Source: Escherichia phage ManiMatter_Bas94. From it: a DNA stretch of 64,000 bases. Location: sequence record PQ850617.1; one strand, given 5' to 3'. A model generated the notes under the pieces. It saw only the letters and a list, made by a program, of their open reading frames with translations, searched no databases and had not been told where the DNA came from. Both the position numbers and the translations under genes were made by a program. Shown here piece by piece: positions 17,963-61,582 of the stretch (its first letter is position 1; each line of letters opens with the position of its first letter).

Positions 17963-20900
17963 ATGGCTAACATTAAACCGTGGGAAGAAGCTTCCAAAGC
18001 TCCTGCGTATCTGAATGCCTCTCCGGAGCAACAGGCTCAAATGAGAGAACAATATAAGGCAGCAGGTGGCTTTATTCCTGAGGAACAACCAGTAGCACAA
18101 CCACAACAAGAAGAACGTGGTGTTATAGGTGAGGTTGCTCAAGGTGTGTCAAATGCTCTTCAATCTGGTGGTGCAAACATTGCAGCTAGTGCTGCTAAAG
18201 GTATTGGTGGTTTAGTTGAGATTGGTGAAGATCTAATTGGAGCACAAACTAGTTATGGTAAGCGTATCCAAGAGAACTCTCAGAACCTTCTGAAAGAACG
18301 TATGGATAAGATTGAGGATGGGATTGGTAAAACTGCTGGTCAGTATGCTGGCGTTGTTGGTGATATTGGTTTGACAGTTACTAACCCGTTAGCTGCCGCT
18401 GCTATCATCGCAGGTCGTGAGACAGGTCGTGCATATGCAGACCAAACCCCTAAAGAGGGAGAAGACAAGTCTGTTCTGGATGCAGCCTTAGTTGGTGGTG
18501 CTAACTATGCAGCTCAGAGAATTCTTCCGGGTGCTGTTGGTACAGCTGAATCTACACTTGGTCGTATCGGTCAGAACGTTGTTACTAACGCAGTGGCTGG
18601 TGCTAAAGGCGGTGCTCTTGTAGGTGCTGCTGAAGCTCAGAACAAATATGGTGATGACACAACCTTTGCTAATGTCTTAGAAGGCGCTATTGAAGAAGGT
18701 GCTATTGGTGCTGCATTCGGTGGTGCAGTTGGTGGTGTTCATGGCTTAATTAGCCGTCCAGATTCTGCTGTCTTCAAGAATACTCCAGAATATGCAAAGA
18801 CTGACATTGCTGCTGACGATGAGCTGATTCGTAGTGCTAAGACTGTTGATGAACTGAAAGAAGCCTACTCTAAAGCTGAAACTGCTAACGCCGCTTCCGC
18901 TCTTAATCTTCTGGATGAGAATGGATTCCGTATTACTGATGCTGTTGCTTTAGATTCTCCTGCTGCTCAGCGTATTCTTAATACAGACCAAGCCAGTGCT
19001 GAGAAAGCTGCTTCTGCTCAGAAAGAGCATTCTAACATTCCGGGCCTCAATCCTTTGGCTCCTCCTGCTAAGACTCGTGGTAAAGCATTCGCTGATAACG
19101 AGCACAACCAGAAGAAAGCTGTCGCTATGAAAGATGCAATGGCTGACTACACCAAGGATAACACGAAAGTTCTTACAGATGTTCTAGATAACCTAGACCG
19201 TGAATTAACTGCTTACCGAGCTGCTGATGATTTTACTGGCAATCCACTTGATGTCAAGAATCGCACACAAGCTGACCGTGACTTCGTTGATGCTTATAAG
19301 ACTTTCTATAATGAAGCAAATCGATTCAAAGCTCGTGATGGTGAAGACTTTAACAACTTTGTAGAGAAAGCTACTGAGCTACGGAAGATGGCTGATAACG
19401 TTTCTCCAGAGATGAAGAAAGCTATTAGTGGGTTGAAGAAACTGAAAGGTATGCCTGAAGGTTTTAACCCTATTCAAGATGCTTATACTCTGAACAATGC
19501 AGCTAAGTTCATGAGCAACCAAGACCGTGGTTGGACTTCCCTGACCGATGATGGATTCCGTGAGGCTTCTTCTCCTAGTCTGGTTATGAACACACTCGGT
19601 GCTGCTAAGTATGCTCTGAATCGCTTCTCTTCTCAGCGTGCTCGCTCTCAACGTGTTAAGCAACAAGAAGCTAACAGCGAAGCTATCCGCTCTCTGGCTC
19701 GTGGTGATTTGGAAGTTGCTCGTGCTAAATCTACTGCTGATGAAGCTCGTGCTAAAATGGAAGAAGAACCAGTTGTTGATGACATTAAATTTAAGACGCA
19801 AAATGACGTGGAAACCGAACCGGTTCGGGAGCCTTCTTCTAGTACTGTGACGGAAGAAAATCTTCCTTCTTCCACTCCTCAAGAAGCCCCTCTTACAGCT
19901 CGCGATTTAGTTGCTCAAAGACGTGCAGTTAAACAGGCAGAACAGCGTCGCGCTCAAGAAGAGGCCGCACAGGCTCCAGAACCCACTGTAGAGGAACCAA
20001 CGGTTAAAGCTGAGCCATTACCTGCCCGTGCTCCTAAAGCTCCTAAGGAGTCTATACAGGACGTTAAACCGGCAAGTGGTGTAGAACGTTTAGCTGCCAT
20101 GTCTAGTGCTGCTCGTCAGGCTACTATAGATCGTGCAGAACGTTTTGCTCGTTCTCTGTACTCTCAGACTGCTAAGGCTAAGGCCACTGCTGAAAACTTC
20201 TTGGCTTACAAGGGAAGTTATAGGGAGTTGATGCGTCGGATTCGTCAGGAAGATAATGCTATCAACACTGAGCGTCATGAAGAGATGGCTCGTAATCAGC
20301 TAGCTTCTCAGCAAGGTATTGCTACTGCTAAGAACAACACTGTACGAACTAACTTTGCTGAATGGGTTAAGGAACGTGGTCTGCCAGAAGACATTGCTAC
20401 TAAGGCATTACGTGCTGAAGAGAAGGGTTTAGGTGGGAACGTGACTAACTTAGATAGTCTGAAACGTCGTGCTGAAAGGTTGTATCAGAAGCAGCGTGAG
20501 GACGAGTTTGATAGACTGTATCAACAGGCTCTGGAAGAGAATAAAGCTTTTGATAAGAAGAATGCTCCTAAACTGGCTGACCAGAAGAAAGAACTTCAAT
20601 CTGAGATTGATACTTTGATTGATTCAGAACCTTTACGTCCTGCTCAGAAAGATGCTATGCGTAAACTGATGAATGACTTTGTAGATGAGAAGTTTAAATC
20701 TTCAGAGAAGGCTGGTAGGGAAGAAGCTTTGGAAGTAGGTCAGATGAAGGATATTTGGGATGGGTTTATTAACACCTATAACAGAGAAGTGAATGCCTTC
20801 AACAAAGCTAACAAGAACTCTCAGTACGAAGCTTTTGCTAAACACATACAGGCTCGTGAAGAACGTCTTGCTACTCTGAAAAATAAAGCTCAGGCTCGTG

Positions 20901-22270
20901 CTCAAGCGAAAGCTACAGCAGAAGCTGAACGTCAGTTACTCGAAGCTATTGCAGCTCAGAAGAGTGAGATTGAGAAGATGTTTGATGAGTTACCTAAACC
21001 TGTCCGCGAGGCTCAGGAAAGCCGTACTCTGAAACAGCTTGCAGCTCACCATGATAAGAACTCCCCTGTTCCTCCAGAACGTTTCCGTAGTATTATCGAA
21101 CGTATCCACAACGCCGAGTCAGATTACCTTGATCGTCAGCGTCGTTTAACTGATGCAGAAGAAGATGCTCGTCAGGCTAAGTGGAACAAAATGTATGAGC
21201 AAGCGGAAGAGATGGACCGTAAGTTTGAGATAGACAAAAGGGTTAAGCGCAGTGAAGAGCTTAAAGCGGCTCAGAAGCGTGAGAATGACCTTATGGCGGT
21301 ACAACGTCAACGTGACGACATCCATCGTCGCCTGATGCATACTTTGGAGGATAGGGGCATATCTAAAGAGGATGCTGAAGCATTTGCTGGTTCCTACATG
21401 GATAACCGTTATGCACTTCTTGATAAGCCTATGACTCCTACTGAACATCAGAATGCTCGTTCTCGTATTGAGGCTGATGTTGAGAAGTTTGCTAAGAAGT
21501 ACGAATCAATGACTCCTATTGAGAAAGAGATTGTTAAGGTTACTGGAGATACTGAAGGTAAGCTTGATAACTTGGATTCGGATACTAGGAAGGCTATTGA
21601 AGAGGCTCGGAAGGTAGACTCTGATATTAAGAAACTGCAAGAGGAAGAGATGGAGATGGAGAAGATTCGTTCTGCTCTGCCTGATGATGAAAGATCTCAA
21701 GCAAATTCTGATATCTTGGAAAGCATTAAACAGCAGGAAGAAGCCTTTGCTGATAAAGCAGAGAAAGCTTTCTTGAATGGGAAGAGCTTGGATGAGTTGG
21801 CTAGTGTGGCTGAAGTTTTAGACAGGGTTCATGGTGCAGACAAGGCTGGTAACAACCGTCGCTTTGTACGTGCATTGCAGACTGCTGCTGAAAACAAGAA
21901 GAAGTATGGTGATAATCCGGTAGCTTGGTTTAGTGCTGATGATTATTCTGCTATTGCTAAACTTGGTGCTTCTTCCGCAGGTGGTAACAAATCTAGAGCA
22001 CTGGAGAAAATCTTTGGTTCTACAGCTGAACAAGCTAAGAGTAAGTTGCTTGGCAGGGATGATGTAGCGAAGATGAGACGTGTAATTGAAGAGAACCCTG
22101 ATATTAAGATTCCTTCTTACAAGACAACGAATCGTACTGAGTACTTGCAGTTCTTGGAGAAGTTTAATGACGAAGGGAAGCCGAAGATTAAACGTGGCTC
22201 ATTGTCAGAGAAGCTTGAACGCAGTAAGCGTCAATCGAGACTCCGTGTAAGAGTTCGATCTAAGGAGTGA
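17963..22270 (+). CDS. Large internal virion/ejection-type protein (1,435 aa)
   Basis: Gly/Ala-rich amphipathic N-terminus, long charged coiled-coil body; last gene of plus block. Confidence 0.5.
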   Translation: MANIKPWEEASKAPAYLNASPEQQAQMREQYKAAGGFIPEEQPVAQPQQEERGVIGEVAQGVSNALQSGGANIAASAAKGIGGLVEIGEDLIGAQTSYGKRIQENSQNLLKERMDKIEDGIGKTAGQYAGVVGDIGLTVTNPLAAAAIIAGRETGRAYADQTPKEGEDKSVLDAALVGGANYAAQRILPGAVGTAESTLGRIGQNVVTNAVAGAKGGALVGAAEAQNKYGDDTTFANVLEGAIEEGAIGAAFGGAVGGVHGLISRPDSAVFKNTPEYAKTDIAADDELIRSAKTVDELKEAYSKAETANAASALNLLDENGFRITDAVALDSPAAQRILNTDQASAEKAASAQKEHSNIPGLNPLAPPAKTRGKAFADNEHNQKKAVAMKDAMADYTKDNTKVLTDVLDNLDRELTAYRAADDFTGNPLDVKNRTQADRDFVDAYKTFYNEANRFKARDGEDFNNFVEKATELRKMADNVSPEMKKAISGLKKLKGMPEGFNPIQDAYTLNNAAKFMSNQDRGWTSLTDDGFREASSPSLVMNTLGAAKYALNRFSSQRARSQRVKQQEANSEAIRSLARGDLEVARAKSTADEARAKMEEEPVVDDIKFKTQNDVETEPVREPSSSTVTEENLPSSTPQEAPLTARDLVAQRRAVKQAEQRRAQEEAAQAPEPTVEEPTVKAEPLPARAPKAPKESIQDVKPASGVERLAAMSSAARQATIDRAERFARSLYSQTAKAKATAENFLAYKGSYRELMRRIRQEDNAINTERHEEMARNQLASQQGIATAKNNTVRTNFAEWVKERGLPEDIATKALRAEEKGLGGNVTNLDSLKRRAERLYQKQREDEFDRLYQQALEENKAFDKKNAPKLADQKKELQSEIDTLIDSEPLRPAQKDAMRKLMNDFVDEKFKSSEKAGREEALEVGQMKDIWDGFINTYNREVNAFNKANKNSQYEAFAKHIQAREERLATLKNKAQARAQAKATAEAERQLLEAIAAQKSEIEKMFDELPKPVREAQESRTLKQLAAHHDKNSPVPPERFRSIIERIHNAESDYLDRQRRLTDAEEDARQAKWNKMYEQAEEMDRKFEIDKRVKRSEELKAAQKRENDLMAVQRQRDDIHRRLMHTLEDRGISKEDAEAFAGSYMDNRYALLDKPMTPTEHQNARSRIEADVEKFAKKYESMTPIEKEIVKVTGDTEGKLDNLDSDTRKAIEEARKVDSDIKKLQEEEMEMEKIRSALPDDERSQANSDILESIKQQEEAFADKAEKAFLNGKSLDELASVAEVLDRVHGADKAGNNRRFVRALQTAAENKKKYGDNPVAWFSADDYSAIAKLGASSAGGNKSRALEKIFGSTAEQAKSKLLGRDDVAKMRRVIEENPDIKIPSYKTTNRTEYLQFLEKFNDEGKPKIKRGSLSEKLERSKRQSRLRVRVRSKE

Positions 22271-26380: not shown

Positions 26381-26389
26381 TATACATTA
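26381..26389 (-). promoter_or_regulatory. TAATGTATA promoter-like element (part of a near-palindrome)
   Basis: Minus-orientation TAATGTATA ~60 nt upstream of SSB start; plus-strand TTATGTATA abuts at 26371-26379. Confidence 0.4.
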
Positions 26390-27859: not shown

Positions 27860-28051
27860 TTACATTGTATAAATTCGCATGATTGTACCACCATCAGCTT
27901 CAATAGCAGAAACAACTTCATCTCGTTCTTCATCCGTGTACACTAGTACGCTTTTAAACGAGCCAGTCACATCTGTGTACAAAATGTTGTACTTGGGAGG
28001 TGGTTTACGGTAAATACCTTCCATCATTCTTTCTCCTCTCGTTCTTTCCAC
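27860..28051 (-). CDS. Hypothetical protein
   Basis: 63-aa ORF. Confidence 0.35.
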   Translation of the reverse strand: MERTRGERMMEGIYRKPPPKYNILYTDVTGSFKSVLVYTDEERDEVVSAIEADGGTIMRIYTM

Positions 28052-28221: not shown

Positions 28222-28715
28222 TTAGTGTGTATGCATCCAGTTTAACCCAATCTGACAATCAGAAGCCAGAGGACACTCCATGTTCAAGTACTCACCAGCC
28301 TTCTTAACACAAAGCTCGGTGTACTCTTTGAGTTTCTGTACATCATTACGGTTCACTGAGAACTGGCCCTCATCGTGCATATCAATTACCTTAGCACAAC
28401 GAACTCCATCTTTCTCAATCCACTTGTTAAGGAACATCATAGCATATTTCATAACAACAGCACCAGCACATTGCAGGAGTGTGTTAAGGGCTTTATGAAC
28501 CATAACCTTACCAGTGGCATCCCGTCTCATTGTAATCTTACGACCATCAACGCCAATCAAATACCCTTGAGCAGCTTTCTCTGTCATACGATCAATGAGG
28601 ATTGCAATACATGGGTTCTCTGCCAAGAAGCGTGCTCGCATCACTGAACCTTCGTCAGCTCCACCACCTACGATTGAACCAAGCTTAGCATCACCAGCAC
28701 CATAGTTAAACGCAT
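28222..28715 (-). CDS. DNA polymerase (family A, T7 gp5-like), exon 2
   Basis: Frame open upstream of track ORF to 28716; encodes ...FNYGAGDAKLGSIVGGG...VHKALNTLLQ...VIDMHDEGQF (motif C HDE) ...GLNWMHTH. Confidence 0.75.
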
Positions 28716-29421
28716 CTCATATATTCGACAAGAGCCGCAACACTCTCGCCCGTTCTCTTATGAACTGCTACATGTCGCCATGTAGGATAGACTATATCAT
28801 CACCCTCTGTCGAGGGGTTGGGCGCTTCCACCGGCATTAGCTTCCGGTGTACTCCTTTCGGATAGTCGTTGCACCTTCAAGTATTCTATAGCTGTTTCTA
28901 ATCGGCTAACATCATCTTTCAATAGCCCTAAAGCTCTGTTGCAGTTGTGACACAACAGACCGCGTATTACTCCGGATTCATGGCAATGATCAACCACAAG
29001 TTTAATTCTGTGATGTGTTGCCATTGCAAACCCTTCGCCCTTACAGATAGCACACTTCCCATCCTGATCAGCGTACATCTTTTCGTAATCGCTGGCTGTG
29101 ATTCCATAAATTCGTTTGAAGTAGGAATTTCTCCAGCCCCTATCTTTGCATTCATCAGAGCAATAATGTTCAGATGGTGCATTTGGTTGAAAATCTTTTG
29201 AGCAATTACGACAAGGTTTTGGATTGAACCGACCTTGAGGGTATTTACTTGCCTCAGCAGTCTGTTCTTCTTTAGTTTTAGTTACAGTTGTATATTCCAT
29301 AAGCACCTCCATGTTGAGTTGCTATAGAATACTTGCTTGGCTCAGGATTGTCTACTAGAGAGTTTCCCTGAGTTCACCCAATTTAATCGACGAGATTACT
29401 CTCGAAGTATCCATTTACGTC
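28716..29421 (-). mobile_element. Group-I-like intron in DNA polymerase motif B, carrying a homing endonuclease ORF
   Basis: 706-nt interruption; upstream exon ends in U, intron ends in G; joining restores TFI-Y-AFNYGAGD in frame. Confidence 0.6.
28800..29312 (-). CDS. HNH homing endonuclease, endonuclease VII-like
   Basis: KCAICKGEGF...VVDHCHESGVIRGLLCHNCNRALG signature. Confidence 0.75.
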   Translation of the reverse strand: MEVLMEYTTVTKTKEEQTAEASKYPQGRFNPKPCRNCSKDFQPNAPSEHYCSDECKDRGWRNSYFKRIYGITASDYEKMYADQDGKCAICKGEGFAMATHHRIKLVVDHCHESGVIRGLLCHNCNRALGLLKDDVSRLETAIEYLKVQRLSERSTPEANAGGSAQPLDRG

Positions 29422-30772
29422 AGATAAACGTTTTAGCGTTGTCACGAGTAGGAAGACCAGCAAGTTTCTGGTTGTGGGAGTGGATATCACCTTCAAGAAG
29501 GATATCACGATACATAATAGCAGAAGCTAAACCACGTTCTGCCAGAGCTTTCTTAGCTGGATTATTCTCTTCGATTGCTTCAGCAAGCATATCCCTACAT
29601 TCTTTAATGAGGTAGTGAGCGAGCATACGAAGTTCAAGTCCAGAACCATCATACCCTAAGAATACTTCTTTACCAGCGGGTATGTAATATTTGTAAGCAC
29701 CTACAGGCTTATCTTTCTTCCCCGGCTTACCTTTCTCGTAAATTACGTTAGTACCTTTTCGTATATAACAACCATCAGGAACAACGTTAGTAATAACGAA
29801 AGGACGAGAGTGATCACTGTCTGAATTATAGTCAGACTCAAACAAACTGCGACACTCATGACCAAACAAACCACGGGAGGGAATATTAACCACGATACGA
29901 TGTTTGAATCGAAAAGTTGGCGTAGCGCAGCTGTTAGCTTCTGCCGAAAGTTTACCATCTTCGCGTTCCTTTGCTATGAGTCCACTGATAAGACCTAGCC
30001 TGTGAGCCGCTACAACGCGCCTCTTAAGCAAACTTCCAACACTCCCTAGCTCGCCCCCTAACCCTTCTTCAAGAGTCTCCTCGAGGTTTGTAGGAGCTGT
30101 AGGCCACTTGTTTGAGGTAGCTAGTGCTATCTTAATCTCATCAAACGTGATAGGTCTACGTCGGTTAGGGTTTAAACCTAAACCAAACACATAAGCCTTC
30201 ATATAGTTCTTAGTCTTAAACCTAAAATGCTTCTCTAAGAACCTCCTAATATCTGCGTCAACCATCTCGGCTGTCTGCTTCTGTTTAGCATTACCTCGAA
30301 TCCAAGCTGAATACCACGCTTGGTATGTTCCATACTTTCGTATATCTTTCTTGATTTCAAAAGTATTCCAAGGTTTCTTTGATACGTTAAACTCTGGAGG
30401 AAGAAAACCCTCATCCATAAGGGCTTCTTTAACTCGTGCATCTTTCGATGGGTCAAAGTCCACGTATTCAACACAGGTGAATGCTCCACCAATGTCTTCT
30501 CTCTTAAGGCCAACTCTATCACAATAGGCTTGAGGCCACTTCTGTAAAGCTCCAGACTTCTTAAATGGCTTCATATAAGTAGAGCCATCTAATCTCATCT
30601 TAGGTAAGAGAGGGATCAGTTCTTTGTCGATATTAACAATAATCTCTTTAAGGAGGTGAACATACCACCGAGCATTTCTTCGGTTGAAACTCACTCCGTG
30701 CTTCGCTTGCTTAGAGATTATATCAGCGACAGTCATCTCTGTCAAAAATGGGAGAGCGTCCGGGTTGCTCAC
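29422..30772 (-). CDS. DNA polymerase (family A, T7 gp5-like), exon 1
   Basis: LGYDGSGLELRMLAH (motif A) and PTRDNAKTFI (start of motif B); no 3'-5' exo domain in this ORF. Confidence 0.8.
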
Positions 30773-31537: not shown

Positions 31538-31855
31538 TTACGATGAGCTTAAAGCTCCTTTGCGTGCTCCAGCTGCCTTCCCAGTTCGATCTCCACTTTT
31601 GCCGCCAGCTGAACGATTTCCGCTGACTGTTTCAACACGTAAGTTGCTTGACGCATTAGAGCCTCCTGACTTGATAGCTCGTTTGTGTCCAACGTCTTTA
31701 CCTCTGACAGCAGCTTTTCCATCGCGCTTTTCAACGATGCGACGTGCACGGTGGCGCTGAGCATCTCCGCTCTTGCTACCAATTCCCGTTTCACCCCTTG
31801 CGATGGCGGTACGTCTTTCTTGTGCATAATCTCTCTTTCCTACATGGTCTGCCAT
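31538..31855 (-). CDS. Basic Gly-rich protein (105 aa)
   Basis: Perfect SD AAGGAG 8 nt upstream; preferred over overlapping 31549-31827 frame. Confidence 0.45.
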   Translation of the reverse strand: MADHVGKRDYAQERRTAIARGETGIGSKSGDAQRHRARRIVEKRDGKAAVRGKDVGHKRAIKSGGSNASSNLRVETVSGNRSAGGKSGDRTGKAAGARKGALSSS

Positions 31856-34972: not shown

Positions 34973-35536
34973 TTAGTAAGACACATCACCACTTGAGTGG
35001 GACATGTTGCTCTTGACAAAGTAGCAATACTTGCCAAGACCTTCATTAATTTCTTGAAGCATACTTTGATCGACTGGATAAGTGGCTAAATCGCCATCAA
35101 ACTCATCCATCTTCTCAATAATACACAACAAGGTCATGCACATATCAGAGAGCATACCGTCCATGTCTAGATCAGCGTTACCCTCTGAGAACCAAGCATG
35201 AGAGAGGTAGTTAGCTGCTGTAGCATCCACTTTAACACAGTGGTAACGCATACGTTCAGCAATACGATCTCCTACTTGTCGTGCGTAATCTTCCAGCTCG
35301 TCAAACATACCATGAACACCCTGAAATCCTGCACCAGAGACGTTCCAGTGGTAGTTTTTAGCTTTGATGTGCAAGAGTTCCATATTAGCTTGTAAGCAGC
35401 TCAGGATGTGTTCTAGGCTGTTTCCACTAATCATACCCTGCATCGTTTCAAGGCGAGAGATTGATAGGTCGGACCGGTCTAACATGCTATAACTGTCACG
35501 ACCAATATCAGGTAAATCAAAGACATTCTTATGCAT
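34973..35536 (-). CDS. Dps/ferritin-like protein
   Basis: KNYHWNVSGAGFQGVHGMFDELEDYARQVGDRIAERM matches the Dps signature. Confidence 0.55.
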   Translation of the reverse strand: MHKNVFDLPDIGRDSYSMLDRSDLSISRLETMQGMISGNSLEHILSCLQANMELLHIKAKNYHWNVSGAGFQGVHGMFDELEDYARQVGDRIAERMRYHCVKVDATAANYLSHAWFSEGNADLDMDGMLSDMCMTLLCIIEKMDEFDGDLATYPVDQSMLQEINEGLGKYCYFVKSNMSHSSGDVSY

Positions 35537-36023
35537 TATATTCCCTCCAAGTTTGATTAAGTAGAACTTTTGATATCACTTGCTGAGAGACACCAAAACG
35601 TCTTGCAAGGGCAGAGCCTCCAAACTCTTTATCTCGAGGAATATAAACTCTCCTACAGTACTCTACATCTTTTAGAGTAAGTTTAGACTGCGGATTGTCT
35701 TCTCCAAACCTCTGTACCATCAAACCTAGTGATGATGCATGTTGAGAGTTTTCTCGGTGGGTACACCATTCAAGATTATCTTTATGATTATTAAGTTTAT
35801 TGCCATCCTTATGGTTGACACACGGAAGATTATCAGGGTTCGGTATGTATTTACTAGCAACCAACCTGTGGACATAGAAATTTTTTAATCCGTCAGGAAA
35901 GTAAATAGTAACTCTATAATAGGCACCATTAGTGCGGAGGGTTAAAAACCTCCCACTCTTTACAGTAAATACTCTACCATCTTCTGTTACATCAATCTTC
36001 CCTTCCAATTCCTTTGGAATCAC
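35529..36023 (-). CDS. Free-standing HNH homing endonuclease
   Basis: CVNHKDGNKLNNHKDNLEWCTHRENSQH motif plus C-terminal HTH-like region. Confidence 0.7.
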   Translation of the reverse strand: MIPKELEGKIDVTEDGRVFTVKSGRFLTLRTNGAYYRVTIYFPDGLKNFYVHRLVASKYIPNPDNLPCVNHKDGNKLNNHKDNLEWCTHRENSQHASSLGLMVQRFGEDNPQSKLTLKDVEYCRRVYIPRDKEFGGSALARRFGVSQQVISKVLLNQTWREYNA

Positions 36024-36385: not shown

Positions 36386-36393
36386 TATACATT
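36386..36393 (-). promoter_or_regulatory. AATGTATA promoter-like element
   Basis: Minus-orientation AAATGTATATAG ~40 nt upstream of ATG 36346. Confidence 0.4.
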
Positions 36394-36418
36394 TGAGAGT
36401 TACCATATCTACTACCAA

Positions 36419-51386: not shown

Positions 51387-51772
51387 ACTTACTCCTGTTG
51401 TTTACACTCGTCAATAACCCACTGATAAGTGGATTGCCCAGAAAAGAAACACTGAATAAATCCAGATGTTCTCTGCGTTACCAGTGCTAGTGCACATATC
51501 ACTACCGCTGCTGCTAGCAGTTTCATATCTAATTTAGACATATTTCCTCTCTTTGAATTTAAAAAAGGACTCTCCGAAAAGAGCCAAACTTTAAATCCAA
51601 AAAAAGATATTACCCAATATCTGTGGATAACCTGCTCTTAAAATATCTATCCGACGGATGTTTGAGGAACACTCCTCGCCCTAGCATCGGCCCCATACGG
51701 GAAATAAATTAAGATTAGGTTAGTTGAGTCAGAATAACTCACATAGCCTTCTCCGGAAGAAGGCTATAGATG

Positions 51773-52006
51773 TTACTCGCCTTTCTTAGCACGATCTTTG
51801 GCAGTTTTGCCAGTGCGGATGCGGTGTGAAACGTTAACCAGAGTGCCACCATCAACTACGGTAACGCTCTTGTTTTTAGCCAGATCAAACACAGCCTTCT
51901 CTGTGCCACCCAAGCGAATTTGCTTAGGTTCACTGAAGGTTTGGGTTGATTTAGATTGGAACTGGAACGGTTGACGGATTGCATCAATTGCACTTACTTT
52001 AGACAT
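51773..52006 (-). CDS. Hypothetical protein
   Basis: 77-aa ORF. Confidence 0.35.
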   Translation of the reverse strand: MSKVSAIDAIRQPFQFQSKSTQTFSEPKQIRLGGTEKAVFDLAKNKSVTVVDGGTLVNVSHRIRTGKTAKDRAKKGE

Positions 52007-52232
52007 AGGGGAAATTCCTTAAAAAATCATGGCTGCGTAGAGGGAATTCCCTACGCAAATTAGGCCGCCTAAAAAGAGGCGTCATAGTACTAAAAGGAGG
52101 AGAGAAGAGGGCTTATTTAGCTACCTTTTTCTGTCCGTTTACGAACCAGATAATTGTTCCATCAGGTTGTCGTTGACCAAAGCCTTTCTGGTTAATCATA
52201 TCGTCATAAGAATATGCTTTACGTCTCATCTG

Positions 52233-52478
52233 TCACTCCTGAACAACTGACATACGAATCATTTCTACCGGAGTGTCACCTTTCATAACACCCAGCACAC
52301 CAGTCAGAAGATTAACTGTAGTAATCCAGTCTTTTTCTACAGAGATTTTGCTGGATACATTGGCAACACGCATATGATACTGAGGTGATGCTGTTCCTCT
52401 CTGAACTACGAAAGGGTTTCCGGGAATAATTGTAGCCAGCGAAACTGTGTTATCTTTAATCTTTGGGATGATTTTCAT
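52233..52478 (-). CDS. Hypothetical protein
   Basis: 81-aa ORF. Confidence 0.35.
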   Translation of the reverse strand: MKIIPKIKDNTVSLATIIPGNPFVVQRGTASPQYHMRVANVSSKISVEKDWITTVNLLTGVLGVMKGDTPVEMIRMSVVQE

Positions 52479-52486
52479 CTTGATTC

Positions 52487-52798
52487 CTATTTAAGTTTAA
52501 GGCTAACATTAAGGTGCATACACGCCCTGTTCTGTACAGCGGCATAACTTCTACCGAGCATGTCTGCCATTCTCTGAATAGGCATGAACCCAGCATTACG
52601 AATAACAAACTGATCTTCTTCTTCCGTCCACTTGACACGTAGAGAAGCCCTTGATATACCAAACTTGGTACAGGCTGTGTTAACAGCATTCTCTGTAACA
52701 TTCATAATCTGAGCAACTTCTTGAACCGAATACTCTTTGATTAGTCTCCGAAGATTTTCAATCTGCATCGGAGTCCATATAGTTCTTCGTGCTTTCAT
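52487..52798 (-). CDS. Hypothetical protein, possible HTH
   Basis: 103-aa ORF. Confidence 0.35.
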   Translation of the reverse strand: MKARRTIWTPMQIENLRRLIKEYSVQEVAQIMNVTENAVNTACTKFGISRASLRVKWTEEEDQFVIRNAGFMPIQRMADMLGRSYAAVQNRACMHLNVSLKLK

Positions 52799-53093
52799 AT
52801 ACCCTCCAATTAAACATTTATATAAGACTTGCTTAGATAAAGATTCAATAAAATAGGGGGAGGGGACGAATCCTCCCTTATCCTATTAATTAGTATTGCA
52901 TGTAAGATCTAACAATCGGTTTCCTTTGTAGGAATAAGCGTTATGCTCATCCAGCACTAAACTCCCGCCCCCTTAGTGGGCTGGGTTATTAAAGGGTAAC
53001 GCCCTTATGGGCTAGTTACGTGAATGTTAGTTTGATAGGAGATCTGAAGTCCTATCTCAAAGGACTCTCGTAAGAATCCTTCACGATAAGCTC

Positions 53094-53381
53094 TTAATAT
53101 ACTAATCCGTGTAAGAGAAACACTCTATTAGTTAACTCTGCTTTAGCTCTGTAATAAGCCTTAGAACCTAACAGGCGGCTCTTAACAAAGAACTTGATGT
53201 CATTGCTTACGTCTTGTATTAAACGCTCCTGTACAGCTTCTGAGGAGCTATTAATTGAATCAATTAACACCTTTGTAGATGTGTAATTCACATCACCACT
53301 CCTTACCGGTTGTAGTTGTAGAGCCACCACACCACTGTGCATCAGATAAGGTTTTAGTCTCCTCATCCATTGCTGCACCAT
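53094..53381 (-). CDS. Hypothetical protein
   Basis: 95-aa ORF. Confidence 0.35.
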   Translation of the reverse strand: MVQQWMRRLKPYLMHSGVVALQLQPVRSGDVNYTSTKVLIDSINSSSEAVQERLIQDVSNDIKFFVKSRLLGSKAYYRAKAELTNRVFLLHGLVY

Positions 53382-53574
53382 TCATGCATGAGATACCATT
53401 GTAACGCATATCAATTTCGCCAGAAGGAACCTTCTCACCTTTATGCCAGCGAGATACACAAATACCTTCCACTGCTACTGCACACCATCCATCAGGACGG
53501 CTCTGTACGCAGCCTGTAAGGGCCACACAGACAATGAAGATACAGATTAAGGATATTACACCACTCCAACTCAT
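53293..53574 (-). CDS. Cys-rich lipoprotein candidate
   Basis: From internal Met: MSWSGVISLICIFIVCVALTGC with lipobox-like LTGC. Confidence 0.35.
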   Translation of the reverse strand: MSWSGVISLICIFIVCVALTGCVQSRPDGWCAVAVEGICVSRWHKGEKVPSGEIDMRYNGISCMNGAAMDEETKTLSDAQWCGGSTTTTGKEW

Positions 53575-53597
53575 AACACACCTCCAAGAGCTTCTAG

Positions 53598-53676
53598 TGA
53601 GGATGACAGGATTTGAACCTGCATACTCCAATTACTTCTTTAACGACCGCTTAGAAGGCGGGGAAGATACATCCTC
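53598..53676 (-). other. tRNA-like element (perfect acceptor stem and T-arm, non-canonical body)
   Basis: Minus strand GAGGATG...GCAGG-TTCAAAT-CCTGT-CATCCTC-A; no 5-bp anticodon stem found by hand. Confidence 0.25.
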
Positions 53677-53717
53677 ATTAAGAATTCTCGTTAAAGCTGG
53701 TTTAAATCACATCAACC

Positions 53718-53969
53718 TCAAGCACAAGCAGGGAGAGTGATGATTTTATACTTGCCATCAAATTCTCCAAACAAACCTAAGAATGTAGGACTATAAGTAC
53801 CAGTACAAACAAACTCATCAAACAGTTCGTTATAGCTAGGCTTAATCTTCCAAGCCCATACATAACCCATCTTGTCAATTGCAATGTAACGAGTGTTTAG
53901 AGGAACAGTCATCATCACACCATCAACTTCGACCACTTTAGTGATTGGTGCAGCTTGGAAGTTTTTCAT
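53718..53969 (-). CDS. Hypothetical protein
   Basis: 83-aa ORF. Confidence 0.35.
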   Translation of the reverse strand: MKNFQAAPITKVVEVDGVMMTVPLNTRYIAIDKMGYVWAWKIKPSYNELFDEFVCTGTYSPTFLGLFGEFDGKYKIITLPACA

Positions 53970-53993
53970 ACTTTACCTTTAATTAAAACAACA

Positions 53994-54018
53994 AAGGCCA
54001 CCCAATCGGGCAGCCTTT
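53994..54018 (-). terminator. Rho-independent terminator (minus strand)
   Basis: RNA hairpin AGGCUGCCC-GAUU-GGGUGGCCU then U-rich; near-identical to hairpin at 31501-31532. Confidence 0.5.
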
Positions 54019-54021
54019 CTT

Positions 54022-54273
54022 TTATTGACTCACACCACGAATCAAATGATTCTGTAGCATTTCATCTTCTGCATTATAAAGGAATGCGAACATCAATTCC
54101 TTAGCCACATCTCTTGAGCAGTTAAGACACTTAGAGATTTGAGCTAGTTGCATATTACGTTCGGTGTGCTCCACTAAGGCAATGCGAATGATCTCTCGCA
54201 TACCTATTACATGGGCTGTTTTAACCGGCATAGGTCCAATTACCTTGCTTGTCACGGATAGTGGACATTGCAT
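54022..54273 (-). CDS. Hypothetical protein
   Basis: 83-aa ORF. Confidence 0.35.
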   Translation of the reverse strand: MQCPLSVTSKVIGPMPVKTAHVIGMREIIRIALVEHTERNMQLAQISKCLNCSRDVAKELMFAFLYNAEDEMLQNHLIRGVSQ

Positions 54274-54661
54274 GAACCCAGAAGCCTTCCAGTTTCAGAG
54301 CACCATTAGTTACTGCATCCATACGTTCAGGGCGGTTCATACGTTTGGTTGATACTTTCATACCTATCTCTCTTTGTTAGTGAAGGCATTATTGCCAGTT
54401 GATATAGCAGATAGCCCTATTAAAAAGGACTACCGACTATCTAAACTGGTGAAGACTCCCTACCCCTAGGAAGTCTCCTGAATCCCAAACCAATATGTAC
54501 CCCTACATATCGGAAAGTCTACCGAAAATTAACAGGTTTTAGTCTAACACCGGATGTTCGAGCAAGCTCTCCCTAGCGGTGTGGCATATGCCTGATTTAA
54601 TAAGTTAATGAGGAACACCCTCACATAGCCCTCTGATAAGCACAAGGGCTATAAGTCGGTG

Positions 54662-54958
54662 TTACTTGTCGGCTTCAATCTCTTGATGCTTAGCTATAGC
54701 TACTCGCAAGTCCTCATTAGCACGAGTAAGGCGTAATACTTCATGGTTGAGATTCTGAAGACGCTTGTTTCTATCTTCAACTTGCGTAATAAGATCATTA
54801 AGAGTTGCTTTAACTTTCTCATTATACATCTCATCCACTCGGACTAGAGATTTGTACATTCTCTCCCAGCTTGCTGCTTTGTTCCTAAGGATAATAAATC
54901 CTATAACGCTGATAGTTAAACAGCTTACAAAAAGGAATTTATATATCTCTAAAGTCAT
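54662..54958 (-). CDS. Membrane-anchored coiled-coil protein
   Basis: N-terminal TM FLFVSCLTISVIGFIIL then heptad-rich region. Confidence 0.4.
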   Translation of the reverse strand: MTLEIYKFLFVSCLTISVIGFIILRNKAASWERMYKSLVRVDEMYNEKVKATLNDLITQVEDRNKRLQNLNHEVLRLTRANEDLRVAIAKHQEIEADK

Positions 54959-55157
54959 ATTATTTACCCTTTATCAGAGATTAAAAGTAATATTATTTAA
55001 GTAAGTTATATTTAGTAAACTTATTTTCTAAGAAATTTTCAAAGGGTCTATATACAGAGCATTACCCATAGTCCCAGAACACTACCATCTTTTTCAATAA
55101 ATTTACTAAGTGGTTGGTTTATAAAGGAATTTAGTTTGTCAAATCTGGCACTAGTGA

Positions 55158-55547
55158 TTATTCCCTAGAGCTATTATCGAACACTAAATCACCACAATAC
55201 ATAGGATTGGCATACCATTTTGGCACCCCTTCGCTCTTACTCTGAAAGTAAGTCCCACTGTACAGCGGAACATAATTCTTCTTAAGGGCACGTTTAGCAA
55301 GTCTCTCGCTTTCTCCAATGGCTTGCTTAGTCATCGGATTTTTATCACGAATCAGCTTTACATAACGTTTATAAGGTTTCTCCTGTTTTAATAGTACCGG
55401 AATCCACTCAAACTGGTTCTTTTGTCTTATCACCTGTTCAGCGGTCAGTTTTCGTTGGGCCATTCTATTTATCACGGTATCCGCAACCATAGCCTTACAT
55501 GCGGTTGGCTGATTCCCTGCCTCATAATAAATAGTCAATGTCAACAT
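55158..55547 (-). CDS. Cell-wall hydrolase-like protein (SleB/CwlJ-type)
   Basis: TIYYEAGNQPTACKAMVADTVINRMAQ resembles the family's N-terminal signature. Confidence 0.45.
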   Translation of the reverse strand: MLTLTIYYEAGNQPTACKAMVADTVINRMAQRKLTAEQVIRQKNQFEWIPVLLKQEKPYKRYVKLIRDKNPMTKQAIGESERLAKRALKKNYVPLYSGTYFQSKSEGVPKWYANPMYCGDLVFDNSSRE

Positions 55548-55801
55548 TAGCTGGGCCGTTGTTATCAGAACTTGCTACCTCCTCTCAGGATAAAACACCT
55601 TTCATGTATGCCTTACTCGAAGCCCTCCTTGTGGCTTTTAGTATGGATTGCTTAGCCTTATTCTTAGCTTCTTCTGTCATTCCATCAAAAACACCGAGCT
55701 TAGTTAGCTCCTTACTAGGAGGCTTATAGGAAGGGTTTAAAGCATTAGATAAATTATGACCATAGGCATGACCACGGCACAATAAAGAAGAAAGATTAAG
55801 C

Positions 55802-56167
55802 CTATGGATTTACACATTGACCGTTACCGGATGCGATTTCATTCATTGACTCATCAAACAAGGTTAGGGATGAGCGCATCAAGTGATCGACCGTGATTTG
55901 TTTACCGGTAGTTTCATTTACCAGTTGAATAGTTTTATCATATGATTGCACATGATCGAAATCATTTACATGCAAAATAATAACTTTAGGTGACTTTTTA
56001 CCAGTCGAATAGTTTTCTATCAAATAGGTGCACTGTAAACCTTCCACCGTATCAGGGGAAAATGTTGCAGCCTTTACACTACCCATAGCCGATAGGAGAA
56101 CGCCCAGCAGTAGAACGACCAGAAAAAAACCTACAACCATTTTAATGATGAATTTAATAAACCACAT
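55802..56167 (-). CDS. Membrane-anchored protein
   Basis: N-terminal TM VVGFFLVVLLLGVLL. Confidence 0.4.
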   Translation of the reverse strand: MWFIKFIIKMVVGFFLVVLLLGVLLSAMGSVKAATFSPDTVEGLQCTYLIENYSTGKKSPKVIILHVNDFDHVQSYDKTIQLVNETTGKQITVDHLMRSSLTLFDESMNEIASGNGQCVNP

Positions 56168-56269
56168 AACTATAAACCTTTTAATCAGAGGATGTAAGAA
56201 TAAAGCATATCAGCGACGAATAACGCCACTGTAACGACGAATAAGCAACGCCAGAAAAATCATTAAGCA

Positions 56270-56515
56270 TCATTTTAATCCGTGATTCAGTAGGTTCGCC
56301 AGTGATAGCCCACCGTCAAAATAAATTGAACGGAAGTCATCGCGGGTAATTTCAATCCCTACAGCAGATAACCAATCTTTGGCCTTTTTAAAATCCATGA
56401 CGCAGAAAGTAACGGTCGGGATTATTACATCACCAGCTTGCAAGCTAAACGCAATAAAAGTATCACACACAAAACAAGAAAAGCCGCTAGACAATTTAAC
56501 TTCTTTGATAGCCAT
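56270..56515 (-). CDS. Small Cys-containing protein, paralog A
   Basis: MAIKEVKLSSGFSCFVCDTFIAF...RDDFRSIYFDG; paralog at 61304-61555. Confidence 0.45.
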   Translation of the reverse strand: MAIKEVKLSSGFSCFVCDTFIAFSLQAGDVIIPTVTFCVMDFKKAKDWLSAVGIEITRDDFRSIYFDGGLSLANLLNHGLK

Positions 56516-56529
56516 AATTCTAACCCTTA

Positions 56530-57018
56530 TTATTTAGCACTGATGCAATTAGCTAGGTTGATGTGTACGGTATAAACCGCATTATTCTCACTATTGTAAA
56601 CCGTGGTGGCAAGCATTGATTCGTTTATCGGGCCATAACTGACTAGATTTGTAACAGCTTTCGCATGTTTGTAACGTTGTACAGTGCCAAATGTAACTAG
56701 TTCGGGATCGTTATCAGTGCGCTTTAATAGCAAATCATCATTGCCCTGATTATCTAGTGTTTTGGTACTAACGACCAGACCATCACGGGAAACGTTACTA
56801 AATTTAACCTTTAAGACGATTTGATTGGTGTCACTATCCGCACCGTTACAGATTAACCATTTGTTAGGTGCATCCTTCACGAACAAACTAGCGGCATTAT
56901 TAGCAGAAGCAGAACTAGCGATAGCGTTGTCAGAAAAAGAAGTTACCAGTGCACTGACACCGATGGCTGTAACCAGTGCATAACTTGCCAGATTAATAGT
57001 CTGCATTACTTTCGCCAT
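56530..57018 (-). CDS. Secreted protein candidate
   Basis: Signal-peptide-like INLASYALVTAIGVSALVTSFS. Confidence 0.4.
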   Translation of the reverse strand: MAKVMQTINLASYALVTAIGVSALVTSFSDNAIASSASANNAASLFVKDAPNKWLICNGADSDTNQIVLKVKFSNVSRDGLVVSTKTLDNQGNDDLLLKRTDNDPELVTFGTVQRYKHAKAVTNLVSYGPINESMLATTVYNSENNAVYTVHINLANCISAK

Positions 57019-57120
57019 TTTTGCTACCCCTTAGATAGAATCAATTAACTATTGCCACTTCTATAATACAAAGACGGTATTCAAGGTTACTACTCATACT
57101 TATACCTCCTGTTTTACGGG

Positions 57121-57148
57121 CATAAAAAAGCCCCAGCCGTAGCCGGGG
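57121..57148 (-). terminator. Rho-independent terminator (minus), distal of a tandem pair
   Basis: RNA hairpin GCCCCGGC-UACG-GCUGGGGC followed by UUUUUUAU. Confidence 0.65.
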
Positions 57149-57210
57149 CAAACCTGAAAGCAACGCATGACCGTTGCTATAAATACACTCGCAAATGCAC
57201 TTACAGCAAC

Positions 57211-57234
57211 GCAAAAAGCCGCTCAAAGGCGGCT
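57211..57234 (-). terminator. Rho-independent terminator (minus), proximal of a tandem pair
   Basis: Hairpin AGCCGCC/GGCGGCT followed by UUUUUG. Confidence 0.5.
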
Positions 57235-57314
57235 ATGTGGAAGCTTCAAATGGGGAGAGGGCACGACGCGGCAGAAAGAGCGTCATAGTACTAAAAGAGG
57301 GGGCTGCATTCCTA

Positions 57315-57758
57315 CTACTTAACCCTTGCTTCTTTGATGGGGTCAATATATTTTTCAACTCCCCACTTATGTTTGCTGTCTGCGTAGAATACATCAGGTG
57401 CGCATTGGCTTGTTTTAGGGAAGGCTTGCGGATCTTTGGTGCTCCCTTTAAACTTCTGTTTACCACGGGTGCGACCATTACAGAAGATTTCTAGTTTCTT
57501 CTCCTCTTCTGTTTTAGCTCCCCCGCTCTTTAATAGTGAACGTTTATGATCAGCTAACAGCAACGCATCAGCACGATGGGTACGATGGCCTACACGCTTG
57601 GGCACACTAGAAGGAATATGAGATTCAGCCTCAGCCCTTGCAGCACGACGCTTTAAACTACGCTTGCTAACATGATTAGTTGCCTTTGGTTTCTCTTTCT
57701 CCAATTCAGAAATAGAAAAACAACGCCCGCCCTTCATGCTGATTTTAGATTTAGCCAC
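57315..57758 (-). CDS. Basic hypothetical protein (early region)
   Basis: 147-aa Lys/Arg-rich ORF; preferred over overlapping 57233-57478. Confidence 0.4.
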   Translation of the reverse strand: MAKSKISMKGGRCFSISELEKEKPKATNHVSKRSLKRRAARAEAESHIPSSVPKRVGHRTHRADALLLADHKRSLLKSGGAKTEEEKKLEIFCNGRTRGKQKFKGSTKDPQAFPKTSQCAPDVFYADSKHKWGVEKYIDPIKEARVK

Positions 57759-57827
57759 TATCTTATTCCTTTCAGTGATAAGTTATATCGGGCAAGCCCA
57801 TCAAGGCGATAGGCTTGAACAAATAAC

Positions 57828-58037
57828 TCAACCAAGTAAACCAAATGATTTCCAACTACGCAGTAAGATCGTACCATCATCCATAGTTACGCATAATTTT
57901 AGTAGTCGCTTACTGGTACTGCTCACCGTTGTGATTCGTCCGGTTGTACATTTACCTTTATTGCTATAAAGATATATAACACGATGGCCTAACAAACGAG
58001 ATGGCGCTTTCTTAAATTCTGAAATGTTAGTGATCAT
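57828..58037 (-). CDS. Hypothetical protein
   Basis: 69-aa ORF. Confidence 0.35.
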   Translation of the reverse strand: MITNISEFKKAPSRLLGHRVIYLYSNKGKCTTGRITTVSSTSKRLLKLCVTMDDGTILLRSWKSFGLLG

Positions 58038-59491: not shown

Positions 59492-60303
59492 CTTTCAATT
59501 ATAAGGGCACTATTGCCCCGCTCGCTATGAGCTTTCAAGCCATTATTGACTTAACTATAAACGCTCACTATAAACGCTTATAGGTAAGCGGAGCGGTCTT
59601 ATCAGGAGTTAACCTTGCCGCTCCCTTATCCGTGATGTTTCATCTGGTATCTTTAATTAGTCGCTATAAATAAAGCCGACTTGATAGCGATGATCAATCA
59701 TCACAATAAGGCCAGTGTGTCCGACTCAATTTAATTACATTACTGTAACCGTCGGCAATATCGTTTACTCTGCTTTCGCTCCCGCCTATCCTTTTGTATC
59801 AGCTCTTTATCGCTAGTCATCGCCCACTACGGGATACTATTGCGAAAAAGTCACTAACCGCCTAATATTCCGGCGTTTTATATCTTTCGGCAAGTTTACT
59901 ACACAACACGACTATGTACTTTCATCCTAAGACGAATATCAAGCCGCTCACGTCGTAAACGTTCACACTAAAACCTTATTGTTAAATAGCAATTTGCCAC
60001 TTTTTAACCGTTCGCCGCCGCCCTCAATTGGGCGTTAATTCGTCGGGATTGTCTACCCTGATCAGTTTCTTTCATTGTAGCGCCTTTTTAGCTAGGCCGC
60101 CGCTACCCATTAACCGTGGGCGATTAGTTTTAGCCTTGCGTGCACTCAATGATTCCGCTTACCAGTGGTGACGTTTCCAGTTAAGGGATTGTAAAGCTGT
60201 TTACCCTGATAATTTAGGGAGCTTTACGCCGTTTTATCTGGTATGTTTTCCGATGGTCATTATCATCCAACATATGCAACCGATATAGGGGAACGTTTAA
60301 ATT

Positions 60304-60315
60304 ATTAAAGAGCGG
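60304..60315. repeat. TTTAAAGAGCGG motif, copy 1 of 5
   Basis: Others at 60542-60555, 60677-60690, 60789-60801, 61009-61022. Confidence 0.6.
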
Positions 60316-60573
60316 TAAATCTGTCAGTGTGCTTTCTCACACTACGCAACTGTTAGCCGTTGTGTCGCTTTTTCACTGAAGCGGTGATTTGCTTAGTGAC
60401 TTGTGCTTATTATGAATCATTTTGCTTCCGCCGTCAATCACTTTTTTAATCTTTTTTCATCGTTCCCGCTGTTGGGAAGATATATCAATCAGCTATATTT
60501 GATTGAAGATTAAGCGATCAGGCTTGAACTTATGATTCATATTTTTAAAGAGCGGTTTTTCTGACTTGTGATC

Positions 60574-60602
60574 AGTATAAACTTACTTTCTCACGTTGTC
60601 AA
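60574..60602 (-). promoter_or_regulatory. Sigma70-type promoter P1
   Basis: Minus strand TTGACA-N17-TATACT. Confidence 0.55.
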
Positions 60603-60721
60603 TCTCTTTTTTATCGTCTTCTTTGATTCTCTTCCCTTATCTCGCGTGAATCTATGCGAAAGGGCAAGACGATAAATTTTTAAAGAGCGGGATTTTTTAA
60701 GTCATCGCTGACCTTGTACAC

Positions 60722-60801
60722 TCATTATAGGTTAGGCTTTTTCCGGTGTCAATATTCTTTTTCAGAATATTTTCACTTTCTAGCCTGATTTTTAAAGAGC
60801 G
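60722..60801. repeat. ~80-bp direct repeat, copy 1
   Basis: CATTATAGGTTAGGCTTTT...TTTTCACTTTCTAGCCT..TTTTTAAAGAGCG, ~90% identical to 60942-61022. Confidence 0.7.
60724..60752 (-). promoter_or_regulatory. Sigma70-type consensus promoter P2
   Basis: Minus strand TTGACA-N17-TATAAT, AT-rich upstream; inside 80-bp repeat. Confidence 0.65.
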
Positions 60802-60941
60802 TTTAAAGCTGTATGGCTCCCATAACACCACTTGATGATCAGTTAACCTACGATCATTCAGGACTATAGTACCCGCTTAGTTGCGTCTGACTTGCTTCAC
60901 TCACTAGGGAGTTACTTGAGCGGTCATCTTGTCTTTCTAAG

Positions 60942-61022
60942 CTCATTATAGGTTAGGCTTTTCAGTTGTCAAATACTTTTTCAAGTATTTTTTCACTTTC
61001 TAGCCTACTTTTTAAAGAGCGG
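60942..61022. repeat. ~80-bp direct repeat, copy 2
   Basis: See copy 1. Confidence 0.7.
60945..60972 (-). promoter_or_regulatory. Sigma70-type consensus promoter P3
   Basis: Minus strand TTGACA-N16-TATAAT; second copy of 80-bp repeat. Confidence 0.65.
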
Positions 61023-61303: not shown

Positions 61304-61555
61304 TCACCATTTAGGCAAATCTGCATCAAGTAGGCCAGCAAGTGACAATTCACCGTCAACATATATCGATCTGAAATCGTCCCGATTGATATCAATGCGT
61401 ACCATTTGCAGCCATTTTTTGGCCTCGTTAAAGCTCATTGAGCAAAAAGAAACCGTGGGCAATATTACGTCACCATTTTGCAAGCCGAACGCGATAAAAG
61501 TATCGCACACGCAGCAAGAAAGACCGTTCGACAATTTAATCTCTTTGATACTCAT
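61304..61555 (-). CDS. Small Cys-containing protein, paralog B
   Basis: MSIKEIKLSNGLSCCVCDTFIAF...RDDFRSIYVDG; ~55-60% identical to 56270-56515. Confidence 0.45.
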   Translation of the reverse strand: MSIKEIKLSNGLSCCVCDTFIAFGLQNGDVILPTVSFCSMSFNEAKKWLQMVRIDINRDDFRSIYVDGELSLAGLLDADLPKW

Positions 61556-61582
61556 GTTTTTACACTCCCAAAGATAGGTTAT

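Follow-up and report, generated by a model that had tools for sequence, protein, structure and literature searches.

The window analysed here is a stretch of 64,000 nucleotides of Escherichia phage ManiMatter_Bas94 (sequence record PQ850617.1), and the element under study is a short repeated sequence that occurs in it at three positions. The phage is a phiEco32-like coliphage (Kuravirus and allies, Gordonclarkvirinae), with Bas92 as the top match (97% identity). A megablast search with 51500-58000 matched 109 phage records, nearly all of them phiEco32-group Escherichia phages. The three copies have a conserved core, and these cores are probably site-specific nick sites of the type described for the phages tf, Ab22 and Rembedalsseter. 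A phage-specified nickase would cut the motif strand between the fourth base (T4) and the fifth (R5), late in infection or during packaging, and the cut would leave a ligatable 3'-OH/5'-P nick that persists in the virion DNA. This reading is based on the identity of the core with the nick consensus, its conservation across genera, its over-representation on one strand in the sister phages and the common descent that plausibly links all these phages.

In the first-pass annotation of the window the repeat had been described as a 25-nucleotide (nt) sequence at two loci, each just after a gene end in the minus sense. The repeat is genuine: on the plus strand, 52079-52096 and 57280-57297 both carry the exact 18-mer GCGTCATAGTACTAAAAG (minus-strand reading CTTTTAGTACTATGACGC), and shuffles give a chance expectation of 0.02 matches for an 18-mer with up to three mismatches. 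The likeness of these two early copies runs a few bases past the 18-mer into a pyrimidine-rich run of the minus strand. The position after gene ends is also confirmed: in the minus sense, copy 1 is downstream of an open reading frame (ORF) of 38 amino acids (aa) at 52113-52229, a homologue of phi32_94, and copy 2 is downstream of a 147-aa ORF at 57315-57758, a homologue of phi32_120. A third copy at 19836-19853 (+), with three mismatches to the 18-mer, had been overlooked and is a conserved member of the family. The cores and the extended repeats are listed below, the cores with the positions at which, we infer, the DNA of the window phage would be nicked.

52080..52091, minus strand: site 1 core, AGTACTATGACG; intergenic, between the phi32_94 and phi32_93 homologues; predicted nick 52086/52085 (TACT/ATGAC).
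57281..57292, minus strand: site 2 core, AGTACTATGACG; intergenic, after the phi32_120 homologue; predicted nick 57287/57286.
19841..19852, plus strand: site 3 core, AGTACTGTGACG; within the phi32_26-like late ORF 17963-22270, on the sense strand; predicted nick 19846/19847.
52079..52100, minus strand: Kuravirus-specific extended repeat of site 1, formed by the core, CTTTTAG and the upstream pyrimidine run.
57280..57301, minus strand: Kuravirus-specific extended repeat of site 2.

The 9-mer TACTRTGMC has three exact matches in the window, at 52081-52089 (-), 57282-57290 (-) and 19843-19851 (+). All three sites read AGTACTRTGACG, in agreement with the extended context of the mapped nick sites (the 9-mer followed by G and preceded by G or C). 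Three copies of the 12-mer ASTACKRTGACG, which derives mostly from other phages (the sister phages and Ab22), are present in the window where 0.04 would be expected, and none of 100 shuffles reaches three. The functional unit is the core of about 12 nt, A(C/G)TACTRTGACG, rather than the 25-nt repeat. Relative to the local genes, all three cores are on the sense (non-template) strand, a placement that would avoid breaks in the transcribed template strand. The first-pass repeat also contains AAGGAGG on the plus strand, and a plus-strand gene using it was rejected, as no start codon follows.

The same core marks the nick sites mapped in Pseudomonas phages. Pseudomonas putida phage tf has 14 nicks (localized single-chain interruptions), all at 5'-TACT/RTGMC-3', which are present in more than 90% of the molecules and are sealed by ligase (PMC3517423). 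The tf record annotates them as sci1-14. A scan of tf indicates that G comes next at 12 of the 14 sites, giving TACTRTGMCG; this G is invariant in the kuravirus core, and the match between the two therefore extends to ten bases. In the LUZ24-like phage Ab22, read pile-ups mark interruptions at GTACTATGAC and GTACTGTGAC (PMC4482731), and these are exactly the sequences of the window. Nanopore sequencing of Rembedalsseter gave strand-specific coverage drops at 13 of 13 WACTRTGAC sites, and the motif is enriched in sixty related Pseudomonas phages (PMC11780129). This 2025 survey found no enrichment outside its 61-phage Pseudomonas cluster, and no phage with such nicks has an established purpose for them (PMC11780129).

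At tf positions 2099, 5264 and 20791, and at position 83748 in the record of Salmonella phage 7-11, the next gene is annotated as starting at the RTG of TACT/RTGAC, so that the predicted nick falls immediately 5' of the start codon. A micro-ORF that starts at this RTG was considered for the window and rejected: the frame at site 2 stops after five codons in phiEco32 and NJ01, and site 2 has no upstream Shine-Dalgarno sequence.

The window phage and the nicked phages plausibly share a common descent. Around 15 proteins are common to the window and tf, in collinear order. They include the primase/helicase (47% identity), both halves of the DNA polymerase, the 3'-5' and 5'-3' exonucleases, a module of COOH-NH2 ligase, amidoligase, glutamine amidotransferase and ATP-grasp proteins, the major head protein and tail proteins. 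A motif match by accident between unrelated phages is therefore unlikely. By primase/helicase, the nearest phages are Privateer, GAP52 and 7-11 (56-58%), followed by TacPo2 and then by the LUZ24/tf group (~45-47%).

Three of the genomes intermediate between the window and the Pseudomonas phages were scanned for the motif: Salmonella phage 7-11 (HM997019), Proteus phage Privateer (MT028297) and Cronobacter phage GAP52 (NC_019402). Phage 7-11 has 13 TACTRTGMC sites, and 12 of these are minus-strand copies where 1.16 would be expected (Poisson P = 4e-9); the minus-strand copies span 31799-88039 and seven of them lie in the early end. Privateer has seven TACTRTGMC sites, all minus and none plus (1.1 expected; P = 1.6e-4), and additionally three copies of ACTACGGTGAC. 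GAP52 has a single TACT site and eight copies of ACTACGGTGACG, seven minus and one plus, so the specificity of GAP52 appears, from these counts, to have shifted by one base (TACT to TACG). The pooled consensus is ACTAC(T/G)RTGACG, in which A at -2 and G at +10 are nearly invariant. The copies in these sister phages follow the local sense strand, including the single plus-strand copy of the late arm in 7-11 and in GAP52; the sole exception is a weak GCC variant in 7-11. The 7-11 late-promoter element GTAAtg-N16-aCTA was considered as another identity for the motif and rejected, as its upstream half is missing at the 7-11 copies 88039 and 87012 (two checked by eye).

Roughly 100 kuravirus records exist, and a sample of these was examined base by base. 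The first-pass annotation had asked for a motif search in related genomes, and the repeat is present and conserved there. In phiEco32 the early copies lie at orthologous spots, between genes 94 and 93 and after gene 120. Early sites 1 and 2 are present in SU10, NJ01, ECBP2, Bas87, Bas89 and myPSH1131, and both copies are also found in an IMG/VR contig. IMG/VR added five kuravirus contigs only, and the motif is absent from a 153-kb IMG/VR contig that encodes a distant gp93 homologue. The site 1 core is invariant as TACTRTGACG in SU10, NJ01, phiEco32, myPSH1131, KBNP1711, ECBP2 and Bas87, in contrast to its variable flanks and loop. The flanks become ...CAAC or ...AGC in Nieuwekanaalvirus (KBNP1711, Bas89) and in the ECBP2/Bas87 lineage, and the downstream sequence differs as well. 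Only (A)(C/G)TACTRTGACG is unchanged at both early sites of these diverged lineages. The R position is filled by either A or G, the very choice that the tf consensus allows. When the site 2 spacer is aligned over the whole subfamily, the sole invariant blocks are A.TACT.TGACG and the downstream terminator; the site 1 alignment conserves the same core.

At whole-genome scale, phiEco32 (77.6 kb) and KBNP1711 (76.2 kb) each have the same three orthologous TACTRTGMC sites and no others. The predicted nicks of the window at 57287/57286, 52086/52085 and 19846/19847 have their counterparts in phiEco32 at 70592 and 63070 (minus) and at 27941 (plus). At site 3, the 14 bases TACTGTGACGGAAG are identical in phiEco32, Bas88, SU7, EP335 and KBNP1711, in DNA that is merely 71-79% identical and interrupted by indels. 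Such identity amid poorly conserved, indel-rich DNA points to selection on the nucleotides and not on the peptide. This conservation bears on the possibility that the repeat is a product of chance, or a functionless relic of the duplication of an intergenic segment. The existence of just two long copies and a 9-mer count no higher than chance would suit such an origin. On the other hand, the 18-mer is expected 0.02 times, the 12-mer is found three times for 0.04 expected, and the core has outlasted its diverged flanks in three genera and at three loci. A relic is thus very unlikely.

Both early sites are accompanied by hairpins, and site 2 also by terminators. The first-pass annotation had placed two minus-strand terminators after the second copy, and both exist, at 57234-57217 and 57149-57130; the site 2 core is 48 nt upstream of the first.

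57217..57234, minus strand: intrinsic terminator, AGCCGCCTTTGAGCGGC and a T-run; inside the early operon, conserved across the subfamily.
57130..57149, minus strand: second intrinsic terminator, GCCCCGGCTACGGCTGGGGC and T6; inside the early operon.
52033..52058, minus strand: terminator-like hairpin after site 1, with the T-run set apart from the stem.
52066..52081, minus strand: small hairpin CGCCT-CTTTTT-AGGCG; its 5' arm and the 3' end of the site 1 core overlap.
57263..57286, minus strand: small hairpin (AT)GACGC-TCTTTCTGCC-GCGTC(GT), overlapping the site 2 core.

The small hairpin of site 1 has a minimum free energy (MFE) of -8.6, at about the 9th percentile of the background, and that of site 2 is at about the same percentile. 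The stem of the site 1 hairpin is retained with different loops in SU10, IMG/VR 3300045988, KBNP1711 and ECBP2; that of site 2 is retained with variable loops in phiEco32, NJ01 and myPSH1131, and is extended to 7 bp and followed by a T-run in ECBP2/Bas87. The site 2 hairpin is lost in KBNP1711 and Bas89, and site 3 of KBNP1711 has none either. As a general part of the motif the downstream hairpin fails, since it is not enriched in tf or 7-11 and is missing at KBNP1711 sites 2 and 3. The small hairpins are possibly a local addition, outside the definition of the family. The flanks common to sites 1 and 2 are likewise specific to the lineage (TTTTAG in Kuravirus, CAAC in Nieuwekanaalvirus).

These structures are an argument for a motif that acts in RNA, as a processing or cleavage site or as an element that modulates stability or termination, together with the hairpin that follows it, in early and late mRNAs. 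The first-pass annotation had listed a processing site among its suggestions. All three copies are on the sense strand and hence are transcribed, and the copies of 7-11, GAP52 and Privateer follow local transcription, even the single plus-strand ones (the weak GCC variant being the exception). Both early copies are intergenic and are followed by a hairpin and, within ~20-50 nt, by a terminator-like hairpin, and at ECBP2/Bas87 site 2 and KBNP1711 site 1 the hairpin with its T-run resembles a small terminator. Sense-strand placement is, however, equally explained by selection against breaks in the template strand, and a DNA nick is all that has been demonstrated for this sequence. Most copies of 7-11, Privateer, GAP52 and tf, and likewise site 3, are inside ORFs with no special RNA context, two tf copies are antisense to late genes, and the hairpins, which KBNP1711 has lost at its sites 2 and 3, show no enrichment downstream of the sites of tf or 7-11. 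Rfam has no match at the sites. A processing site is therefore less supported than a DNA nick, as the third copy is intra-ORF and the copies in relatives are mostly intragenic, and we regard an RNA function as distinctly unlikely.

Two defined kinds of RNA element were considered and rejected. In lambda-type nut sites, a conserved boxB hairpin comes after a boxA with the consensus CGCTCTT(T)A. The resemblance at site 2 (CGCTCTTTC) is not shared by site 1 (CGCCTCTTTTTA) or by KBNP1711 site 2 (CGTTTCTCT), and the loop of the hairpin is unconserved. A known RNA family is equally unsuitable, as Rfam shows only a transfer RNA (tRNA) at 53598-53676 and one sub-threshold match elsewhere. The tRNA (minus strand, 33.4 bits in Rfam) is the tRNA-Arg annotated in relatives; in Bas92 it adjoins an HNH endonuclease gene on the opposite strand.

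The place of the sites in the transcription programme follows from the gene layout. Late genes occupy the plus strand from 1 to ~22.3 kb, and middle and early genes occupy the minus strand. The early promoters and a nearby terminator are the following.

60296-61021 region, minus strand: early sigma-70 promoter cluster, with three to four consensus-like promoters at 60972-60945, 60752-60724, 60602-60574 and 60437-60409.
61282-61263, minus strand: terminator near the early promoter cluster.

Of the 12 consensus positions, three of these promoters match 11-12 and the fourth matches 10. They are embedded in repeats with a common TTTTTAAAGAGCGG, spaced by ~135-240 nt. The published early promoter cluster of phiEco32 and SU10 has the same layout (PMC4281155; PMC8948821). 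With the early promoters at 60409-60972 (-), the copies at 52079 and 57280 lie 3-9 kb into the leftward early operon. In SU10 both early sites fall inside the early cluster, coding sequences (CDS) 69-125 (PMC4281155). Comparison with the homologous regions of phiEco32 and SU10 places the early/middle transition at the phi32_68/69 boundary, at ~36.4 kb in the window and ~16-21 kb downstream of the two early copies. The terminators after site 2 had been suggested to mark this boundary; they are, like both sites, inside the early cluster.

A promoter for a non-sigma70 holoenzyme had also been proposed. The promoter of the phage sigma factor gp36 in phiEco32 is the single element tAATGTAtA, located 6-8 nt upstream of the transcription start (PMC8948821). 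In the window it matches at 1034, 17917 and 26453 (+) and at 26381, 31892 and 36386 (-), and gp36-type elements precede the homologues of genes 13, 26, 40, 58 and 68, in agreement with the literature.

36386-36394, minus strand: gp36-type promoter of the phi32_68 homologue, which reads AAATGTATA.

The consensus thus occurs elsewhere in the window and not at the repeat: with up to one mismatch, it is absent at or near either early site. More generally, an intergenic position upstream of genes and the loosely -10-like TACTAT would be compatible with a promoter for gp36, sigma-70 or another holoenzyme. However, a sigma-70 scan of 51500-58000 was negative at 52060-52110 and 57260-57310, with neither a -35 element nor a TG extension. 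Site 2 is directly upstream of two terminators, so a transcript that starts there would be terminated, and site 3 and most copies in relatives are intragenic. A promoter is scarcely credible.

The motif may also act in DNA otherwise than as a persistent virion nick: as a start for replication or primase, a recombination hotspot or an operator for an early regulator, the Pseudomonas nicks being a side product. T7-type gp4 primases recognise a GTC core; the complement of the motif contains the similar 5'-CGTC-3', and the clade shares a gp4-like primase/helicase. At site 2, many records (at least 10 of 40 among the matches listed) become homologous to the window precisely from TTTTAGTACT onwards (query position 35; window 57296), at the 5' edge of the motif. 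This start implies that the upstream gene was swapped and the motif kept. In relatives, other small ORFs replace the phi32_120-like gene upstream, and the mosaic junction abuts site 2. A mosaic junction at this place suggests recombination nearby, and the flanks shared by sites 1 and 2 within a lineage would fit a longer protein footprint or gene conversion. On the other hand, a mosaic junction beside a selected element is expected anyway, the mapped tf cut (TACT/RTG) is not coincident with the predicted primer start, and no known experiment ties the motif to the start of replication, to recombination or to the binding of a regulator. Another DNA-level function is thus unlikely. The operator suggested in the first-pass annotation holds loosely, as a DNA site recognised by a protein.

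Several observations weigh against nick sites. The bare 9-mer TACTRTGMC shows no enrichment in the window (3 found, 2.15 expected), and the case therefore rests on conservation and on the extended consensus. The sites of tf are all on one strand, whereas those of the window are two minus and one plus, following gene orientation. The early sites are intergenic, with conserved lineage-specific flanks and a small hairpin, features that a nick model does not call for and that may point to a further role or to another one. The searchable literature, which excludes the subscription-only original papers on the phiEco32 genome and transcription, holds no report of nicks in any Kuravirus. Presence and absence across the window, tf, 7-11 and GAP52 gave no discriminating nickase candidate. 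No public contigs ending at site 1 were found, a result that is uninformative, and the protein neighbouring site 2 is not on record.

To our knowledge, the nicking enzyme has not been identified in any phage of the TACTRTGMC group, tf included. Pfam returned no match for the proteins that neighbour the sites or for the protein of 31538-31855. Two ORFs of the window encode nuclease domains.

28800-29312: ORF of an Endonuclease_7 protein.
35529-36023: ORF of an HNH_3 protein.

The DNA polymerase gene is in two ORFs (28222-28644 and 29420-30772, minus), and the Endonuclease VII-domain ORF 28800-29312 (Pfam E = 1e-23) lies between them. It resembles a homing-endonuclease insertion, and the polymerase gene of phiEco32 is unbroken. 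The ORF 31538-31855 (-) encodes a 105-aa homologue of phi32_58 which is 57-64% identical to tf, 7-11 and GAP52 proteins and better conserved than the polymerase or the primase.

A broader proposal, which we hold to be doubtful, is that the sites belong to a strand-aware system of genome punctuation inherited throughout a clade that takes in the Pseudomonas Bruynogheviruses and tf at one end and enterobacterial C3 podophages at the other. Its specificity would have co-evolved (TACT in most, and TACG in GAP52), and in the Kuraviruses it would have been reduced to three fixed landmark positions, with a positional function. Kuravirus nicks would then stand just ahead of the early-operon terminators and within late gene 26, in each case on the non-template strand. 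If true, the nicks would not be incidental and would have a positional role, for instance in staged genome entry, in the priming of recombination or replication, or in transcription coupling, and a genetically tractable E. coli phage would be usable to find both the nickase and the function.

Within the searchable literature, mention of the motif in a phage context is confined to the papers on tf, Ab22 and Rembedalsseter, and no paper combines Kuravirus and nicks. The predicted nick sites of the phiEco32-like phages, the enrichment in 7-11 and Privateer and the GAP52 variant, all recognised by sequence comparison, appear to be unreported. They extend the range of the motif beyond the 61-phage Pseudomonas cluster described in 2025. 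The specificity shift of GAP52 could help to find the recognition protein by co-variation. If the kuraviruses have this signal, confined to three conserved positions, they provide a compact experimental system: E. coli K-12 is a host for them, the BASEL collection includes several, a map of the phiEco32 transcription programme exists, each site can be mutated singly and the candidate nucleases are open to knockout. There is also a practical aspect, as nick sites cause strand-specific coverage drops and read-start pile-ups that can be mistaken for genome termini.

Another repeat was observed in the early region. A 151-nt direct repeat (75% identity) links 56372-56522 and 61412-61562 of the window. 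A second, diverged set of phi32_125-127-like genes is present at 55802-56515, downstream of the site 2 terminators; in phiEco32, the phi32_125-127 genes are found solely beyond the early promoter region.

T5 has been known for about 50 years to carry nicks at fixed genome positions, and phiKMV-like and tf/LUZ24-like phages were added later. The predicted sites would share with those of T5/BF23 and of the phiKMV-like phages (consensus CGACxxxxxCCTA/CTCCGG) the character of fixed, strand-specific, ligatable nicks of virion DNA with no established function; the recognition sequences and the phage lineages are unrelated. The gp36 promoters (tAATGTAtA) are, like the cores, short, conserved, phage-specific DNA signals of the same genome, with another sequence and other positions, none at the repeat. 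The sister phages 7-11, Privateer and GAP52 (C3-morphotype, Grimontviridae) are closer: they have the 12-nt consensus, the sense-strand placement and the concentration in the early end, and 7-11 and GAP52 also have the single copy in the late, oppositely oriented arm. They differ in having 7-12 copies, mostly inside ORFs, and in the TACG of GAP52; nicking is putative there too. The comparison with tf, the LUZ24-like phages (PaP3, Ab22) and Rembedalsseter shows differences in number (8-14 sites per 45 kb there, three per 68-78 kb genome in kuraviruses), in the extra lineage-specific flanks and small hairpin of the early sites of the window, in the host (E. coli for the window) and in that the sites of the window are known from sequence alone. 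The likeness includes an identical core, with A/G at position 5 and the following G, a preference of most copies for the early region and the sense strand, several tf sites that are also at gene boundaries (sci1, 2, 4 and 11), and common replication, amidoligase and structural modules.

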